Virus genome (UHGV): UHGV-0123274
Length of the DNA stretch: 15,494 nt
Origin: a virus
Reading direction: 5' to 3' (one strand)
The notes beneath the pieces are model-generated. The model was not told the origin of the DNA. It was given only the letters and a program-made list of their open reading frames with translations, and searched no databases. How positions within the stretch are numbered: position 1 is the first letter of the stretch; every line of letters starts with the position of its first letter. Below, in pieces: positions 1-15,494 of the stretch. The position numbers and the translations under genes were made by a program.

Positions 1-55
1 CAATTCGAATATTGGTTACGTCTGCATGTGCTATCTGCGCCCATATCATCCAGTG
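1..55. repeat. Left copy of a perfect 55-bp terminal inverted repeat (partner at 15440..15494)
   Basis: Bases 1..55 are the exact reverse complement of 15440..15494; identity stops at base 56 versus 15439. Confidence 0.9.
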
Positions 56-679: not shown

Positions 680-1018
680 TTATATCATTAATTTTGTTTC
701 GTGCCAGCCTTTGGTCACCCAGCATTGTGAGTCACCATTACACGGGCATGAATTAACAGGAACTCTCTCGCCGCACTTACCGCACCGTTTTCTGCTGATC
801 GATTTTATACGCCAGCGCACACGTGCATCATCCTGGCGGCTCAGTAACGCGATGTACTCACCAAACTCGCAAGGCGCACGCCTGAAGCGACGCGTGGCAC
901 AGTTACGCTCCAGCATTTCAATTTCCTGAGCATCAAGTACAAGCTCCAGCTTACGCATACCGGATGATGCTTGCTTGGCTCTCTGATCGGCTTTGTGCTC
1001 TGTTGCTGATTTAGCCAT
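680..1018 (-). CDS. Hypothetical nin-region protein, 112 aa, with Cys-rich C-terminus (CGKCG...CPCNGDSQC), possible zinc ribbon
   Basis: ORF in operon context, overlaps upstream gene stop by 8 nt; Cys cluster seen in translation. Confidence 0.55.
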
Positions 1019-1358
1019 TCTGCTTTTCCTGCATCAGGAGAAAGACAATCATGGCGGCGCGGAGAGGTCTGGTATCAAATATTGGGCTTACGCCTTTTGC
1101 ATCCACACACCATTCAGTTAACTGGTCTAAGATAGAAATCCTGTATTTCTCAATAATCGGCCATGAAGCGCTCGGATCATTGCAGTAGTCAGGCAAATGA
1201 TTTAATGGCTCAAAAGTTGTATCAGCATTTCCGTAATACCATTTGTTGGTGTTATTCCCTGATGTTTCCGGTTTACTTGCCCAAAGGCCTTTAAAAATTA
1301 TGTCTCCTACCATTCTGTTAATTTCAAAATCACTTAACTGTGAATAATCCATTGTCAT
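1011..1358 (-). CDS. Hypothetical nin-region protein, about 115 aa from ATG at 1358
   Basis: ATG at 1358..1356 overlaps the ninE stop (ATGA coupling); the track ORF extends to 1394 but that start lies inside ninE. Confidence 0.6.
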
Positions 1359-1531
1359 TTCCTCGCACGATATCTTAGCCACCGGATATCCCACAGGTGA
1401 GCTGTGTAATTGAAGGTTTTTACGTCAGATTCTTTTGGGATTGGCTTGCGTTTATTTCTGGAGCGTTTCGTTGGAAGGTATTTGCAGTTTTCGCAGATGA
1501 TGTCGGTGAAACTTCGTCGCTGTCGCCTCAT
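1355..1531 (-). CDS. ninE: NinE-like protein, 58 aa
   Basis: Translation [58 protein letters not shown] matches lambda NinE as I recall it; ATG overlaps the methyltransferase stop (ATGA). Confidence 0.8.
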
Positions 1532-2058
1532 GCCGCCCTCCTGACGCCCTGCCCGATCGCCATCAATGCCGCTTTGGATACGGTAGTAAACATCCGTCGA
1601 GGACTGATGAACGGTCGCCAAATCAGCAGCATGGAGCCTTTGCTGTTTCCCTTCTTCTCCAGCCCTGTCGATGGTTCGATAAAATTAATCCGTCCATCAG
1701 TGATAATGCGAACTTCGTCGACACTCTCCAGAGCCTTGCTGAACCATCCGACTGACATATCCTCTGGCACAAGCATAACTACCGTCTGTCGCTGTTGTAT
1801 GCACTGCTCAGCGGCTTTTTCCACCCACGGCCTGATATTGCTGTACGGTGGGTTATTCCAGATTGCACCGTGGCTTACCCACTCAGAATTGAGCGCGTCG
1901 TCGGCCTCAGTTAGCCAGTGAGCACACAGAGCATTTTTGTCGCTCGCTGCCGAATCCAGCCAGAATCCAAACTCAATATCCAGTGCATCAAAAAGCCAGA
2001 GCGGCGTTTGCCAGCAGTCTCTAACTTCTTTTGGTGTTTCTGATTTATGCTTAATCAT
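1528..2058 (-). CDS. dam: Phage Dam-family DNA N6-adenine methyltransferase
   Basis: 176-aa product with catalytic NPPY motif and LDSAAS SAM-binding-like segment; ATGA overlap with upstream HNH gene. Confidence 0.85.
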
Positions 2059-2582
2059 TCACCCCTCGCATATTGTCCGTGATATTTGTTGATAGCCTCA
2101 CTGGCAACCAAACCAGCAAGCTCAAGATCTTCATAGAACCCAAAATGCAACCGGCCAAAATCTGTGCGCACTTGAACGGCCCATTTATTTTTTTGCTTGT
2201 TCCATAAAACATTTTTTATTCCAGAACGGCTATTGCACTTAGTTTTCTGATTTCGGCTGTTTGCTATCCGGCTTGCCTCCCTAAGATTTTTTGGGGAATT
2301 GTCCAGCCTGTTTCCGTTAATATGGTCAATATTTTTCAATGGCATTCTTTTGTTGTGCAGCGCAAAAACAACTACGTGAACAAACATCTGAATGCCTGCA
2401 AAACACACCTGTCTATACCCAGATCCATTTATCGATGTTTTAATTTCATCTCCGGCCCGGTGGCTGTGGTTGGGGTGTTTTAGCGAGTCCTTTTTGTATC
2501 TGACTGTATCTCCGTCTAAATACAGATAATCCTCAATAAGCCGATACCTATCTGACGCTGGCGTATTTGATTTGATAGTCAT
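2055..2582 (-). CDS. HNH homing-type endonuclease (HNH motif plus AP2-like DNA-binding region)
   Basis: Motif NIDHINGNRLDNSPKNLR (HNH) followed by WNKQKNKWAVQV...FGFYED (AP2-like); ATG at 2582 overlaps ninB stop (ATGA); track ORF start 2642 lies inside ninB. Confidence 0.8.
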   Translation of the reverse strand: MTIKSNTPASDRYRLIEDYLYLDGDTVRYKKDSLKHPNHSHRAGDEIKTSINGSGYRQVCFAGIQMFVHVVVFALHNKRMPLKNIDHINGNRLDNSPKNLREASRIANSRNQKTKCNSRSGIKNVLWNKQKNKWAVQVRTDFGRLHFGFYEDLELAGLVASEAINKYHGQYARGE

Positions 2583-3019
2583 GCAGCCCGATCTCCCCAT
2601 CTCGCTTTCCACTCCAGAGCCAGTCTCGCTTCGTCTGACCACTTAACGCCACGCTCTGTACCGAATGCCTGTATAAGCTCTAATAGCTCCGCAAATTCGC
2701 CTACACGCATCCTGCTGGTTGACTGGCCTATTACCACAAAGCCATTCCCGGCAAGGTTAGGAACAACATCCTGCTGCTTTAATGCTGCGGTAAACACACA
2801 CTTCCAGCTTTCTGCATCCAGCCAGCGACCATGCCATTCAACCTGACGAGAGACGTCACCTAAGCAGGCCCATAGCTTCCTGTTTTGGTCTAAGCTGCGG
2901 TTGCGTTCCTGAATGGTTACTACGATTGGTTTGGTTGGGTCTGGAAGGATTTGCTGTACTGCGTGAATAGCGTTTTGCTGATGTGCTGGAGATCGAATTT
3001 CAAAGGTTAGTTTTTTCAT
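2579..3019 (-). CDS. ninB: NinB (Orf-family recombination mediator)
   Basis: Translation from MKKLTFEIRSPAHQQNAIHAVQQILPDPTKPIVVTIQERNRSLDQNRKLWA closely matches lambda NinB as recalled; GGAGAGGG Shine-Dalgarno upstream of ATG at 3019. Confidence 0.9.
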   Translation of the reverse strand: MKKLTFEIRSPAHQQNAIHAVQQILPDPTKPIVVTIQERNRSLDQNRKLWACLGDVSRQVEWHGRWLDAESWKCVFTAALKQQDVVPNLAGNGFVVIGQSTSRMRVGEFAELLELIQAFGTERGVKWSDEARLALEWKARWGDRAA

Positions 3020-3044
3020 GACTTCCCTCTCCCCCAAATAAAAA

Positions 3045-3075
3045 GGCCTGCGATTACCAGCAGGCCTGTTATTAG
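3045..3075 (-). terminator. Intrinsic terminator between helicase gene and ninB (tR2-like position)
   Basis: Hairpin ggcctgc-gattacca-gcaggcc at 3054..3075; on the minus strand followed by U-tract (complement of aaataaaaa 3045..3053). Confidence 0.55.
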
Positions 3076-3095
3076 CTCAGTGATGTAGATGGTCA

Positions 3096-4532
3096 TCAGA
3101 ATCCCCCTTTCTTCTTGGACTGCGGTTCCTTGCGTTCACGGCGGCGAATTTCAGCAGACTGTTGGTCTGTGTCATAAATAGCGCCATTTGCCTGAATGCA
3201 ATACACCGTACCGGTATTGCCATGACGATTGAGACGAAGGATTAGTTCGGTTTCACCAGGTGGAACACTGTCATCAAAAGCGCCTTCACGATGGATCCCA
3301 ACCCAATAATCGCAATCCTGTTCAATCTGCCCTGTATCTCGTGAGTCACTTGGTAATGGGCGTTTATTGGTTCGGCTTTCCAGTGCGCGGTTAAGCTGCG
3401 TCAGAAGCACAACAACGCAATCAAGCTCTTTGGCAAGGTTCTTCAGTCCTTTGGTGATCATGCCGTAAGCAAGGTCGTTGCGATCGGCCTTCTCAGCGGT
3501 CATTAGTGTCAGGTAATCGACCAGAATCATGCCAACACATCCTTTTTCTCGCTTGATTCGACGGCTTTCGCTGACGATTTGAGCCAGAGATAATCCCGGC
3601 GTGTCGTCGATGTAAAGCATGTCGATTTCACTCAAGCGATTAGCTGTTTCGATCGCCCTGTTGAAGGCACCATCGTAATCACCCTGATAGCCGTCATCAG
3701 CGTCATTTGTCGCCGGAAGGTAAAAAATATTCGGGTTAACACCAGACTTCTGCCCTACCAGTTTTTCCAGTATCTGATCACCTGGCATTTCAAGGCTGAA
3801 CATCAAAGCGGGCTTTTTCTCATGCACTGCGCAATTGATTGCCATCTGGCTGTATAGCGTCGTTTTCCCCATCTTAGGGCGAGCGCCAATGACAAACAGA
3901 GAGCCTTTCACCAGACCTTTCGGTGACAGCATCCTGTCCAGCGATGGGATCCCTGTGCTCATTCCCCGTTGTTCGCCTGATGGGTCAAATCGCTTCTCAA
4001 GGTCGCTAACCCAGTCTTCCATGACCTCACCAAATGAACGAAGGCCGCGACGCGATCCGGTTTTTGCATGGTCTGTCAGTTGCGTGAAAATCGCCTGAAT
4101 AGCTTCGTACTTCTGCGTTGCAGTCATTCCGTTGCGGGAATAGAGCAATTCCGTCGCTTCAGTCATGCGGTTGATGGCGTAGCGTTCCATTGCGGTTTCA
4201 CGAACCTGCATTGCATAGGCAACGATGTTTGCTGCGCTTGGCGTGTTCTTTGCGATCTCAGCGATATAAGCAAAACCGCCAACAGACGCCGTTAACGATT
4301 TACGCTCCAGTTCATCGAAAAGCGTCAGGCCATCTACTGGCTTTTGCTCCCGGTGCATTCTGGTTATTTCTTCGAAAAGGATTTTGTGTGGTCGGCCGTA
4401 AAATGAATCAGGCTTCAGCATCGCCAGAACTTTCCGGACGCGCTCACTGCTGTCATCATCCAGAAGCAATCCACCAATCACCGCCTGCTCTGCCTCGATG
4501 CTATGGGGCGGCGCATAAAAATTATCGGTCAT
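3096..4532 (-). CDS. DnaB-family replicative DNA helicase
   Basis: 478 aa from ATG at 4532 (GAGGG RBS); Walker A GARPKMGKT and DnaB-like N-terminal region; overlaps the stop of the O-like gene. Confidence 0.9.
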   Translation of the reverse strand: MTDNFYAPPHSIEAEQAVIGGLLLDDDSSERVRKVLAMLKPDSFYGRPHKILFEEITRMHREQKPVDGLTLFDELERKSLTASVGGFAYIAEIAKNTPSAANIVAYAMQVRETAMERYAINRMTEATELLYSRNGMTATQKYEAIQAIFTQLTDHAKTGSRRGLRSFGEVMEDWVSDLEKRFDPSGEQRGMSTGIPSLDRMLSPKGLVKGSLFVIGARPKMGKTTLYSQMAINCAVHEKKPALMFSLEMPGDQILEKLVGQKSGVNPNIFYLPATNDADDGYQGDYDGAFNRAIETANRLSEIDMLYIDDTPGLSLAQIVSESRRIKREKGCVGMILVDYLTLMTAEKADRNDLAYGMITKGLKNLAKELDCVVVLLTQLNRALESRTNKRPLPSDSRDTGQIEQDCDYWVGIHREGAFDDSVPPGETELILRLNRHGNTGTVYCIQANGAIYDTDQQSAEIRRRERKEPQSKKKGGF

Positions 4533-5421
4533 CGTGTTCACCCTCACGAACTTTCAGGTAGGTATTATCGTTAAGCAGGAAATCAAATCCCTTTTTGTGC
4601 CAGACGGTTCCGCGCTGATGGTTTGGGCGCTCTTCGAACATCCATCGGCAATTTTCGCCTACGTAGCTCAAATAATTTCTCCAGTCCTGCATCGTGAAAC
4701 CATGCCCGTCAAGCTGTCGGGTTATCACTCCGGCTTTGCGCCAGAACGTTCGGATCTGGTTTTTACGCTTGTCATTCAGTGCGCGGATTCTTGGCGCTTC
4801 AGGAAGGATTTCGTGGTAAGCATCGACAACATCCTGACAGCTGACGGAAGGTTTTTTCTTGTCAGACTTTTTGTCTGCTGTGGCACTCTCTAATACGTCA
4901 GTATTAGAGATAATATTATTATATTCTTTATCTGTGGTAATTTGCTGGTAATCTGCTGGTACAGTATTGCTTGCAGGCATTGGTATTGCTGGCTTTGAGG
5001 TGGTAATTTGCTGGTAATCTGCTGGTACAAAATTTGACTGATAATCGTCATATTTCTCTACCGAGAAAACTGAGAATTTACCGTGTGAAACCCAGTCAAT
5101 CATGCCGAGTTTTTTGAACTTTCTAAGCAGGTACTGAACGCGATCTGGTTTGAGTCCTGTTTCAAACGCCAGAGTATTTCTACCGCCAAGTAGCTTCCCT
5201 CTGCCTACCAGAATTTCTCCTGCGTCAGTCATTACATACTCAGGCGTATGCTTTGCTTTGAGGATTAAGTGAACCCACAGATGCGCAGTTTCTGCGTCCT
5301 TGTAAAACGGCACATCCATAATTTTACGGTGCAGCAAGGCATACCCCTTACCGCTGCTTTGATGCGGTTGTTGTAGCCTTCTGGCCTCTCTGGCTTCGGC
5401 TAGATTAGATATGTTACTCAT
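4522..5421 (-). CDS. Replication initiator, lambda O-like (contains origin iterons)
   Basis: 299-aa ORF with AAGGAG RBS; sits between cII and helicase; internal tandem peptide [10 protein letters not shown] x2 coded by DNA iterons. Confidence 0.8.
4900..5040. repeat. Origin-like iteron array plus adjacent AT-rich tract inside the O-like gene
   Basis: 30-bp direct repeat gtggtaatttgctggtaatctgctggtaca at 4934..4963 and 5000..5029, built from shorter ggta(a/t)t..gc sub-repeats; AT-rich tract at 4900..4930 downstream in O direction, as in lambda ori. Confidence 0.65.
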
Positions 5422-6310: not shown

Positions 6311-6958
6311 ATGAAAACGATGCATGAAATTATCGGGGAAAGGATCAAGTCCCTTAGAGAAGCTAAAGGACTTAGCCAGGCTCAATTGGCCAAGCTTTGC
6401 GGCTGGGCTGCGCCTTCACGCCTGGGGAACTACGAGTTAGGAACAAGAAAGGTTAGCGCGGATGACGCGCTGGTTCTTGGGGCGGCACTCGGCGTATCTC
6501 CGGCAAAAATAATGTTTGGCGAGGATTCAGACGCCGTATTTCGCCAATATGAATACCCGTTATTTTCTTCAGTGCAGGCCGGGCCATTTTCGGAGGTGGG
6601 AAGCTACACAGCCAGCGATGCAAAGGCATGGGTCCCAACGACCACAAAAGCCAGCGAAAAAGCTTTCTGGCTTGAGGTGAAGGGGCATTCAATGACGGCG
6701 CCTCAGGGGGTTCGTCCAAGTTTTCCGGAAGGCATGCTGATACTCGTTGATCCGGCTGAGCCGGTAGAGTCTGGGGATTTCTGCGTGGCTTCTGCAAATG
6801 GTGATTCAGAGGCAACGTTCAAGAAGTATGAGAAGGATGCAGGGGTTAGTTACCTGGTACCTTTAAACCCGGCATATAGAACACTGGATTGCGACCATAG
6901 CTGCCGCATCATAGGCAAGGTAGTTAAGGCGCAGTGGCCTGAAGAGACGTTTGGCTGA
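6311..6958 (+). CDS. cI: CI-type prophage repressor (N-terminal HTH, C-terminal S24 LexA-like autopeptidase domain)
   Basis: 215 aa; [15 protein letters not shown]; Ala-Gly cleavage candidate in VQAGPF; Ser in GHSM and Lys in TFKKY; C-terminus AQWPEETFG resembles lambda cI as recalled. Confidence 0.9.
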
Positions 6959-7108
6959 TCGGCAAGGTGTTCTGGTCGGCGCATAGCTGGTGAAAAAATT
7001 ATTTAATGCGGTGTATTGGCTGATTGTAACCCCATGTAACATCTTGCCGTCACCATTTCGGTGGTTAGATTTTTAATAAAAAAAAACAAATGTATAGCAA
7101 GGTTTTTT

Positions 7109-7588
7109 ATGGATAAAATTAATTACCCACCCCTGTTTGAGCCAGGGTTCCATGACATGGATGAAGCTGGATTAAAATCGTATTGTGTCGATTGCTTTCC
7201 TTCATCATCCAGGCGAGGCATGCTATACTGTAATTTTATACAGCTACTCGAATCTATTCGAGAATTATCTGCTCAATATGGCTGTTTTACAGAAATATGG
7301 GTTGATGGTTCATACACCACGTCTAAACCAGAGCCTGATGATATTGATATTTTGTTGGTATGTGACTATAGCAATATAAACTCAATACCTGTCATGCTTC
7401 GGGGCCGCGTCGATAATTTGCTTGACCGAAACTACATCAAACAAAACTACAAAATTGATGTCCTACTACTCATGAAGAATTTAGATGACCCTAACTATGA
7501 TTATGAGTACTGGCGTAGCTACTGGCGCGGTTGGTTTGGTTTTGATCGCAGTGAAAACCCGAAAGGGTTAGTGAGGATTTTTTTATGA
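7109..7588 (+). CDS. Minimal nucleotidyltransferase-fold protein (Pol-beta superfamily), 159 aa; first gene of rexAB-position cassette
   Basis: Motif VDGSYTTSKPEPDDIDILLV fits the GS-x9-DxD signature (compare LFGSYARG...SDIDLLV in MNT proteins); ATG at 7109 preferred over GTG at 7061; visibly AT-rich. Confidence 0.65.
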   Translation: MDKINYPPLFEPGFHDMDEAGLKSYCVDCFPSSSRRGMLYCNFIQLLESIRELSAQYGCFTEIWVDGSYTTSKPEPDDIDILLVCDYSNINSIPVMLRGRVDNLLDRNYIKQNYKIDVLLLMKNLDDPNYDYEYWRSYWRGWFGFDRSENPKGLVRIFL

Positions 7589-8517
7589 ATGATAAATCAA
7601 TGTTTAAAAATTGCGATAAACGCATTGATTTCATTCAAAAAGAAGTCGATGCAATGAAGCAAAACAAAACCAGGTCCTTTGCTGACATGCTTCTTTATCG
7701 CTCCATGGATTCTCATCTGAGCGATTTGAAGGCCGAAAAATTAAAGCAAGATAGTCGGCACCCACTTATCGATTTTTTTGAGCTGCGGCTGAAAGGCTCT
7801 GAGGTTGACTTTGGCTCTATTCCTTTAGAGCTGCTTGGGGCTATTTCAACAAATCTTGCAGCGCTAATACAAAGAGCAACACACAAAATTGCCTCAGGCA
7901 AGGACTCAAAAAAAGTTCCCTACGACGTGAAAAGCTCCTTAAACCTCAGGCTGGCTGATTTATCCCCTGGGTCTACAAAATTGGGCGTCACCTTCTCTAC
8001 AGGAATAGCAGAATTAGTAGAAACAGTACCCAGCAAGGCTGTAAAAGGCATATTCGATTTGTTGTTAAGCGATGACGACAACAACTTCATGAATCACGTC
8101 GCTGAAATTGGATACAATTCCACTGTAAGCCTTAAGAGAATCGTAGAGGAATGCGATAAACACAACTTAACATTTGATGCAAGTTGGACCGGTCCATTTA
8201 GTAATGGCACCAAGGTGGCAACTATTGACTCCAATAAAATTAAGTACTTGGTGAGTAGACTTACATCAACCATTTCATCCCCTCCCATTACTGAAACGGT
8301 TACAGGCGAACTGGTCGTTCTATCCAAATATGGGAAGCTGGAGCTTGATGTTGGTGGTGAACATTTAAAGGCTTCCTATCCGATTGAAATGCTAGATTTA
8401 ATACAAAAAAAACACAAGGTCGGACAGATTGTTTCTCTTTTAGTGGAGACTACTGAGATTCACAATGATCGCATAGGTCTGTACCGTAAAAACCATCTTG
8501 TTAAATCGGTTCTTTAA
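7585..8517 (+). CDS. Hypothetical 310-aa protein, second gene of rexAB-position cassette; no confident domain
   Basis: ATGA overlap with upstream gene, GAGGA RBS; soluble-looking, no obvious TM segment; AT-rich. Confidence 0.75.
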   Translation: MNDKSMFKNCDKRIDFIQKEVDAMKQNKTRSFADMLLYRSMDSHLSDLKAEKLKQDSRHPLIDFFELRLKGSEVDFGSIPLELLGAISTNLAALIQRATHKIASGKDSKKVPYDVKSSLNLRLADLSPGSTKLGVTFSTGIAELVETVPSKAVKGIFDLLLSDDDNNFMNHVAEIGYNSTVSLKRIVEECDKHNLTFDASWTGPFSNGTKVATIDSNKIKYLVSRLTSTISSPPITETVTGELVVLSKYGKLELDVGGEHLKASYPIEMLDLIQKKHKVGQIVSLLVETTEIHNDRIGLYRKNHLVKSVL

Positions 8518-15439: not shown

Positions 15440-15494
15440 CACTGGATGATATGGGCGCAGATAGCACATGCAGACGTAACCAATATTCGAATTG
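15440..15494. repeat. Right copy of the perfect 55-bp terminal inverted repeat
   Basis: Exact reverse complement of 1..55; begins 6 nt after the stop of the last plus-strand gene. Confidence 0.9.

Follow-up and report, generated by a model that had tools for sequence, protein, structure and literature searches.

A probable free-standing HNH-AP2 homing endonuclease gene lodged in the start of an orphan dam gene in a lambdoid prophage

Does an endonuclease gene that lies directly upstream of a methylase gene work in partnership with it, or is the methylase gene its home and target? The question is raised by UHGV virus genome UHGV-0123274, a stretch of 15,494 nucleotides (the window, by which we mean this whole stretch). 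It represents a lambdoid prophage's early region in reversed orientation, and the genes at issue all lie on the minus strand. Between ninB and ninE it encodes an HNH endonuclease and a Dam-family methyltransferase, which a sequence-only reading had taken for two inserted genes, joined to their neighbors by ATGA overlaps and possibly acting as a self-protecting homing cassette or a restriction-modification-like module. From comparison with related loci we consider it likely that the HNH gene belongs to the free-standing homing endonuclease genes (HEGs), here of HNH-AP2 type and without intron or intein, and that it invaded the 5' end of the orphan dam gene; this 5' end is its apparent home and probably also its target. 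Dam itself is an independent, pre-existing resident, the target and not the partner of the HNH gene.

The cassette and its junctions with dam

In loci that lack the HNH gene, dam opens with ATGACTATCAAATCAAATACGCCAGC-ACACGACAAG-GACTGCTGG (MTIKSNTPAHDKDCW), its ATG overlapping the TGA of ninB. In the window this opening is split (Table 1). The original dam start codon with the first 26 nt (ATGACTATCAAATCAAATACGCCAGC, encoding MTIKSNTPA), identical to the dam 5' end in the HNH-less loci L003 and L002, now forms the 5' end of the HNH open reading frame (ORF), which begins MTIKSNTPA-SDRYRLIEDY...; this stub keeps both the ATGA coupled to ninB and the upstream GGAG. Directly after dam codon 9, 10 nt (ACACGACAAG) are replaced by a 537-nt cassette, which consists of the HNH gene body and a 39-nt surrogate dam 5' end. 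The 3' end of the cassette, GCGAGGGGTGAATGATTAAGCATAAATCAGAAACACCAAAAGAAGTTAGA, contains a Shine-Dalgarno sequence (GAGGGG, within the 3' end of the HNH gene), an ATGA stop/start and 13 new dam codons, and it rejoins the resident dam at GACTGCTGG. Judged from these junctions, the HNH gene lies inside dam, not merely between ninB and dam, and has taken over the start of dam and its coupling to ninB. The sequence-only reading had overlooked the insertion within the dam coding sequence, the taken start and the surrogate 5' end. Fusion to the ATG and opening 26 nt of dam gives the HNH ORF its ATGA coupling to ninB, while the Shine-Dalgarno sequence, ATGA start and 13 substitute codons supplied by the cassette keep dam intact and coupled.

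Comparison with the HNH-less phage Lambda_2E9 defines the event precisely: 1155 of 1156 flanking positions are identical, and the only other difference is the exchange of 537 nt for 10 nt. The cassette is compositionally foreign: its GC content is 42%, falling to 28% within the surrogate 5' end, whereas ninB and the dam body have 50-53%. In E. coli, the surrogate dam 5' end is found only with the HNH gene or with deletion footprints of it. Splicing is unnecessary, because the HNH ORF ends in TGA, dam restarts at the overlapping ATG with its own Shine-Dalgarno sequence and the cassette is essentially all HNH coding sequence; the element is therefore neither an intron nor an intein. The insertion splits and recodes the 5' sequence of dam, and the occupied allele may thereby lack the true recognition or cleavage site.

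In RefSeq, the annotation pipeline PGAP starts dam at an ATT that lies one base into the HNH stop codon (175 aa), both in HNH-bearing and in footprint loci (L001 8170-8697; equivalent coding sequences in L004, L005 and L011-L017). The in-frame ATG three bases upstream of this ATT forms the ATGA overlap and is the dam start called on the metagenomic contig L008. The ATT start in HNH-bearing loci is probably wrong.

The nuclease and the resident methylase

The HNH protein is functional-looking, on the grounds of an intact D-H...N...N motif, an I-HmuI-like fold, an AP2 domain and a dN/dS of 0.09. Its match to PF13392 scores 42.6 bits against a cut-off of 24.8. In an alignment of 45 homologs, H69, D86-H87, N99 and N108 are invariant and N95 is nearly so. 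The family profile aligns the HNH core with the catalytic motif of I-HmuI (VVDHKDGNKDNN...NLR...N; E 1e-7), and the AlphaFold model (pLDDT 91.6) has I-HmuI (1u3e) as its top whole-chain fold match in the PDB, which places the window protein among the HNH, or His-Me finger, endonucleases of the HNH_3 and I-HmuI-like kind. For the AP2-like domain, Pfam gave no direct AP2 match on the single window sequence; isolated C-terminal and N-terminal pieces matched nothing in Pfam even at E<=10, and a single-sequence search of PDB sequences returned a chance match only. Yet the family profile matches the AP2 domains of the plant proteins WRI1 (E 1e-7) and TEM1 (E 2.5e-4), the modelled C-terminal domain superposes on the AP2 domain of TEM1 at 1.8 A over 51 columns (prob 1.00), and several homologs carry PF00847. 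The earlier label HNH-AP2 is thus borne out by profile, model and homologs together.

Between the window gene and a 78%-identical homolog, dN/dS is 0.09 (dS ~1.6), which indicates that selection has acted on the HNH protein. Relatives at a greater distance (35-50% identity) are encoded by free-standing genes of Jersey-like, T5-like and uncultured phages, near holin, tail-fibre or thioredoxin genes and not near methylases.

The methylase is a phage orphan Dam. The PF05869 match covers profile positions 1-167 of 169, the NPPY motif is visible in the translation, the neighbors are nin genes and PADLOC returns an orphan methyltransferase match. From position 2019 downward the dam body is the ordinary resident allele; after the DCW motif its protein equals that of Lambda_2E9, with 1 nt differing in 700. 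A 70-nt probe for the dam 5' end matches phi24B at 17559-17628, within the dam coding sequence, and by this match the window dam is evidently the same gene as phi24B dam. The phi24B gene has been reported as expressed in lysogen cultures (PMC3342100), and orphan Dam enzymes of Stx prophages have been described, for example M.EcoVT2Dam (PMC6602927). Relative to this family, the window dam body is the standard ninB-adjacent PF05869 gene, and only the first 12-13 codons differ, through the cassette. Phage dam is an alternative or an addition to lambda ninC and ninD; locus L006 carries dam, ninC and ninD together. On L008, a C5-cytosine DNA methylase gene (PF00145, 3447-4553) lies between ninE and ninF, so that this nin region, which also has dam, encodes two methyltransferases.

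Occurrence of the cassette and the explanations weighed

We searched phage records and 5426 complete E. coli genomes by megablast, with window positions 1355-3037 as the query. Some match was found in 422 phage records and in 2188 of the 5426 genomes, nearly always as two pieces that skip 527 nt, i.e. the HNH gene; coverage of the query reached 80% or more in only 14 E. coli genomes and in none of the phage records. The HNH region, used as a probe, matched in 34 of the genomes, each time adjoining the phage Dam gene, and in a further eight only the last 45-76 nt of the probe matched. By comparison, the intact, uninterrupted dam 5' site (70-nt probe) occurs in 1502 of the 5426 genomes and in 244 phage records, including Stx phages, Sf6, SfI and phi24B. 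The cassette thus occupies ~2% of dam sites, dam being without the HNH gene in the remaining ~98%. No phage record contained the HNH cassette, no relative of the HNH protein with more than 60% identity was present in 50,697 phage genomes, and a scan of one genome per species gave no close relative, only a 39% fragment in Enterobacter. Since the HNH gene is absent from nearly all NinB-Dam-NinE loci, dam is a common resident module and the HNH gene a rare add-on. Of the two genes formerly read as inserted, only the HNH cassette is polymorphic; that part of the claim stands, and Dam drops out of it as a common resident.

Seven of the 34 HNH-bearing genomes have two places that match the cassette probe (matches H86, H88, H89, H95, H98, H99 and H108), which could reflect spread between co-resident prophages. 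NZ_AP045773.1 has two dam places, neither of them with the intact dam 5' site.

The cassette has identical boundaries in every locus examined, with a length of 537 nt in eight loci besides the window and 1-2 nt less in two decayed copies, and its copies are 98.3-99.6% identical (2-9 mismatches). It is found behind ninB allele NinB1 (the window, L001, L007, L012 and L016), behind NinB2 (L011 and L013) and behind a 141-aa NinB/YbcN-family gene, where the start reads GTGA (L009, L010, L014 and L015). These three contexts are unrelated in their ninB type, and the host prophages differ in their replication modules; there are two cassette subtypes, each present in more than one ninB context. The 78%-identical homolog, on L008, has its own ribosome-binding site, follows a DUF1367 gene and is ATGA-coupled to a dam whose body is very divergent (dN 0.48) yet opens with MIKHKSQTPIESRDCW. 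Because this divergent dam carries the same 5' end, the MIKHK beginning must travel with the HNH gene.

Decay and loss are likewise on record. A frameshift removes the HNH C-terminal domain in P0002, copies P0004-P0006 have N- or C-terminal truncations or an internal deletion, L016 has a 2-nt deletion in the cassette and L017 a copy disrupted by IS100; about one in ten of the HNH copies in the databases is visibly broken. Deletions have left footprints of three kinds, all with the surrogate dam 5' end still in place. In L004, a deletion between two CTATCAA heptamers has left a 13-codon HNH mini-ORF; in L005, the last 27 nt of the HNH gene remain; in L006, the gene was lost between GAGGG repeats, and ninB2 now ends with the HNH C-terminal RVE and stop. 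As read from these loci, gain, spread, decay and loss that leaves a resistant, recoded site would make up the classic homing-endonuclease cycle. Presence or absence at a fixed site between near-identical genomes, several backgrounds, and degenerate and deleted copies are what characterizes a free-standing HEG, and all are found here. The homing idea, which these loci support, had been raised from the sequence alone, together with its own tests; the tests favor insertion, because the catalytic residues are intact on alignment and nin regions with and without the HNH gene show a clear presence/absence polymorphism, not a fixed arrangement.

Under the homing reading, lytic growth or induction would lead to translation of the nuclease from the antiterminated pR transcript. 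The enzyme would nick or cut those dam alleles that lack the HNH gene in lambdoid phages co-infecting or co-resident with the carrier. The site of action would be, or lie near, the uninterrupted sequence ...AATACGCCAGC|ACACGACAAG|GACTGCTGG... The break could then be repaired by phage recombination (Red/Erf-type functions and NinB) with the HNH-bearing copy as the template, which would copy the cassette in. The right homology arm would be the dam body, and the left one the retained 26 nt of dam together with the conserved ...GGGCTGCATGA end of ninB, which is short; the left-hand homology between contexts is only ~30-35 nt. The occupied allele would be immune because the target is split and recoded.

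Several points weigh against this reading. The target site is deduced solely from the insertion point, cleavage and homing are predicted, and free-standing HEGs often cut hundreds of base pairs from their own gene (PMC2988022). No co-conversion gradient is evident in the 700 nt to the right of the cassette, and HNH-bearing loci carry assorted dam haplotypes. An occupancy of ~2% is low for a drive that works efficiently, and none of the sequenced free phages has the cassette. Lambdoid phages are, moreover, highly mosaic, so that a fixed cassette could spread by recombination at gene boundaries, ordinary or Red-mediated, without the nuclease.

This last point leads to the explanation that the HNH gene is a passive passenger or a domesticated nuclease, which arose once, spreads by ordinary mosaic recombination and serves the phage in a way other than its own inheritance, for instance by nicking that stimulates recombination or replication, or by excluding competitors. 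Strong purifying selection on the HNH gene, its position among recombination genes (ninB, and rusA in relatives), its low frequency and the lack of a detectable co-conversion tract would all fit, but ~30-35 nt of left homology is poor for break-independent exchange, the repeated decay and deletion argue against a function useful to the phage, and the domain architecture and the relatives are those of homing endonucleases. We regard this explanation as unlikely. That the window copy is instead a relic, which makes no active enzyme and awaits deletion, is suggested by the broken copies and footprints elsewhere, but we find it very unlikely: the ORF is full length, none of the conserved catalytic residues is missing, and 2 nt in 537 separate this copy from the commonest cassette allele.

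Also very unlikely, and the least probable of the three, is a self-protecting unit, in which HNH and Dam would act as a restriction-modification-like or addiction pair and Dam methylation would shield the DNA of the carrier. The HNH gene and its 78% homolog do always lie immediately upstream of a Dam gene to which they are translationally coupled. However, because the homolog precedes a much more divergent dam, the link appears to be a matter of target specificity. A type II restriction-modification system is a co-inherited unit, whereas here the methylase lacks the nuclease in 1502 genomes and 244 phage records and is accompanied by it in 34 genomes. In L007 an intact HNH copy adjoins a truncated dam, decayed HNH copies adjoin intact dam genes, and the more distant HNH relatives are not linked to methylases. 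That E. coli, the host, itself methylates GATC is well established. No GATC occurs in the 70 nt that surround the insertion site; the nearest one lies in the 3' end of NinB1 and is absent from the NinB2 and NinB3 contexts. A link between GATC and protection by Dam was accordingly rejected: outside the NinB1 context, GATC is missing from the insertion point and from the ~40 nt around it. The suggestion of a self-protecting or restriction-modification-like pair thus finds no footing in a dam that is mostly alone, once truncated beside an intact HNH gene and elsewhere intact beside broken ones.

If the HNH gene is indeed a homing endonuclease gene, it may exemplify a distinct HEG lifestyle inside a coding gene without intron or intein, a suggestion that we make tentatively and hold at somewhat less than even. 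Such an element would take the initiation codon, ribosome-binding site and coupling of its target, restart the target from a recoded surrogate 5' end that destroys the homing site, and carry 26 nt as a portable left arm that permits homing whatever the ninB allele. A limited literature search gave no description of this start-codon-stealing, surrogate-5'-end architecture, and the literature on ninB and HNH genes in lambdoid phages gave general mentions only; HNH genes in ninR regions have been mentioned in passing (PMC4118853).

Gene order, known systems and the ninB/dam junction

The features of the region are collected in Table 1; Pfam matches confirm the earlier identification of ninB, HNH, Dam and ninE.

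Table 1. Features of the ninB-dam region and its surroundings in the window
Feature	Position	Strand	Evidence or remark
DnaB-like helicase gene	3096-4547	-	
tR2-like intrinsic terminator	3044-3067	-	upstream of ninB
ninB (Orf-family recombination mediator)	2579-3019	-	allele NinB1; PF05772 E 2e-54
Original dam start codon and first 26 nt	2557-2582	-	now 5' end of the HNH ORF
HNH-AP2 endonuclease ORF, 175 aa	2055-2582	-	PF13392 HNH_3 E 4.6e-11; phrog_99 HNH endonuclease E 7e-43
Mobile cassette, 537 nt	2020-2556	-	replaces 10 nt of dam
HNH (beta-beta-alpha-metal) nuclease core, residues 67-110	2253-2384	-	H69, D86-H87, N95, N99, N108
AP2-like DNA-binding domain, residues ~119-172	2067-2228	-	three strands and a helix; model, profile matches
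Surrogate dam 5' end, 39 nt	2020-2058	-	ATG overlaps HNH TGA
Dam-family N6-adenine methyltransferase, 176 aa	1528-2058	-	PF05869 E 8e-66, 221 bits
ninE	1355-1531	-	PF05322 E 3e-42
ninX	1011-1358	-	

The ATGA overlaps are where they had been described, as plus-strand TCAT (ATGA in the gene sense) at 2579-2582 (ninB/HNH), 2055-2058 (HNH/dam) and 1528-1531 (dam/ninE). Because TCAT also stands at 1355-1358, the ninE/ninX junction, the chain spans five genes (ninB, HNH, dam, ninE and ninX). Such stop/start overlaps are a general, long-known property of lambdoid nin regions (PMC8022706); those in the window are real but unremarkable. A longer, GTG-initiated HNH ORF (2055-2642, 195 aa) was rejected, since the start that the different contexts share is the one at 2582, which reads ATG or GTG. 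No promoter-like site was found in 900-3300, and we infer from the absence of an internal promoter that the HNH gene is expressed only within the antiterminated pR operon.

Elsewhere in the window, the start of a Cys-rich ORF of 112 aa (680-1018, minus strand) and the ninX stop overlap by 8 nt. This ORF falls into no Pfam family, and its PHROGs match, phrog_536, carries the annotation of a transcriptional regulator. Direct repeats of GTGGTAATTTGCTGGTAATCTGCTGGTAC at 4934-5034, inside an O-like replication gene (4522-5421), are probably ori iterons. Two overlapping plus-strand genes, 7061-7588 and 7585-8517, occupy the position of lambda rexAB, flanked by a cI-like repressor gene (6311-6958) and by the PL operon. 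In PADLOC they correspond to the two components of PDC-M63, a candidate defence system (A 2.4e-41; B 7.5e-45), and their PHROGs are of unknown function. The ends of the window (1-55 and 15440-15494) form an exact 55-nt inverted repeat, which extends to 67 nt at 94% and reads outward at both ends as coding sequence ...HWMIWAQIAHADVTNIRI. This resembles a k=55 de Bruijn contig whose ends enter one repeated gene in opposite orientations, and the window is probably a whole assembly contig bounded by that repeat.

Among known systems, the T4 mob genes and I-HmuI are the closest in kind and the ShiLan insertion is the closest in situation. Like the window gene, the free-standing mobA-mobE genes of T4, the subject of 'intronless homing' (PMC2988022), encode an HNH nuclease with a C-terminal DNA-binding domain, are wedged between conserved phage genes and occur sporadically among related phages. 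The start of mobE also overlaps the stop of the upstream gene (UAAUGA), as that of the window HNH gene does, an overlap documented as keeping translation of the endonuclease low (PMC2988022). Unlike the mob genes, the window gene lies in a temperate lambdoid prophage and not in a T-even phage, is situated within the first codons of its target ORF, where the mob genes occupy gaps between genes, and carries a replacement 5' end; its activity is predicted. I-HmuI, the HNH nicking endonuclease of SPO1 and best fold match (PDB 1u3e), shares profile similarity over the N-terminal sheet and the DH...N...N residues, but is intron-encoded and has a helix-turn-helix/NUMOD C-terminal region, whereas the window protein is AP2-like and lacks an intron. 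The hidden HNH of the ShiLan domain (PMC11855218) is, as in the window, a patchily distributed HNH homing element inside a non-essential phage DNA methylase, in actinophages, without intron or intein. There, in-frame translation through the insert adds a loop to the methylase, and the HNH ORF runs in another frame (PMC11855218), whereas in the window the HNH gene takes the original start and the methylase restarts downstream with a surrogate N-terminus; the methylase family and the host differ as well.

The ninB/dam junction has also been invaded by a different HEG, which encodes NUMOD4, HNH_3 and an I-HmuI-like NUMOD and is found at 3694-4296 of L002 (E. coli FSIS11705876) and in Stx2-converting phage 86 (H220). 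Its insertion into the ninB 3' end, ~30 nt ahead of the dam start, has left 30 nt of the standard ninB end as a remnant, and the gene is coupled to dam. In contrast to the window HNH gene, it has another DNA-binding architecture and lies on the ninB side, so that dam keeps its 5' end unaltered. With at least two different HEGs occupying it, the junction is an HEG hotspot. Related prophages have further annotated HNH genes (L012 2549-3160, L013 2768-3379 and 1-305, L001 13913-14446, L006 437-490), at sites that include upstream of ninB, the ninG position, the rex position and a 54-nt pseudogene fragment between two ninF copies.

The HNH gene gives no evidence for a new restriction-modification system or methylation motif. 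Its product, in which an AP2-type domain would serve as the reader, is a candidate nickase or endonuclease with site specificity, and its target can be guessed. HEGs in lambdoid and Stx-type prophages are usually just labelled 'HNH endonuclease'; the locus described here would offer a well-delimited natural HEG cycle in these temperate prophages, with gain, decay and loss marked by footprints, and it points to one specific origin of the fine-scale mosaicism where ninB meets dam.

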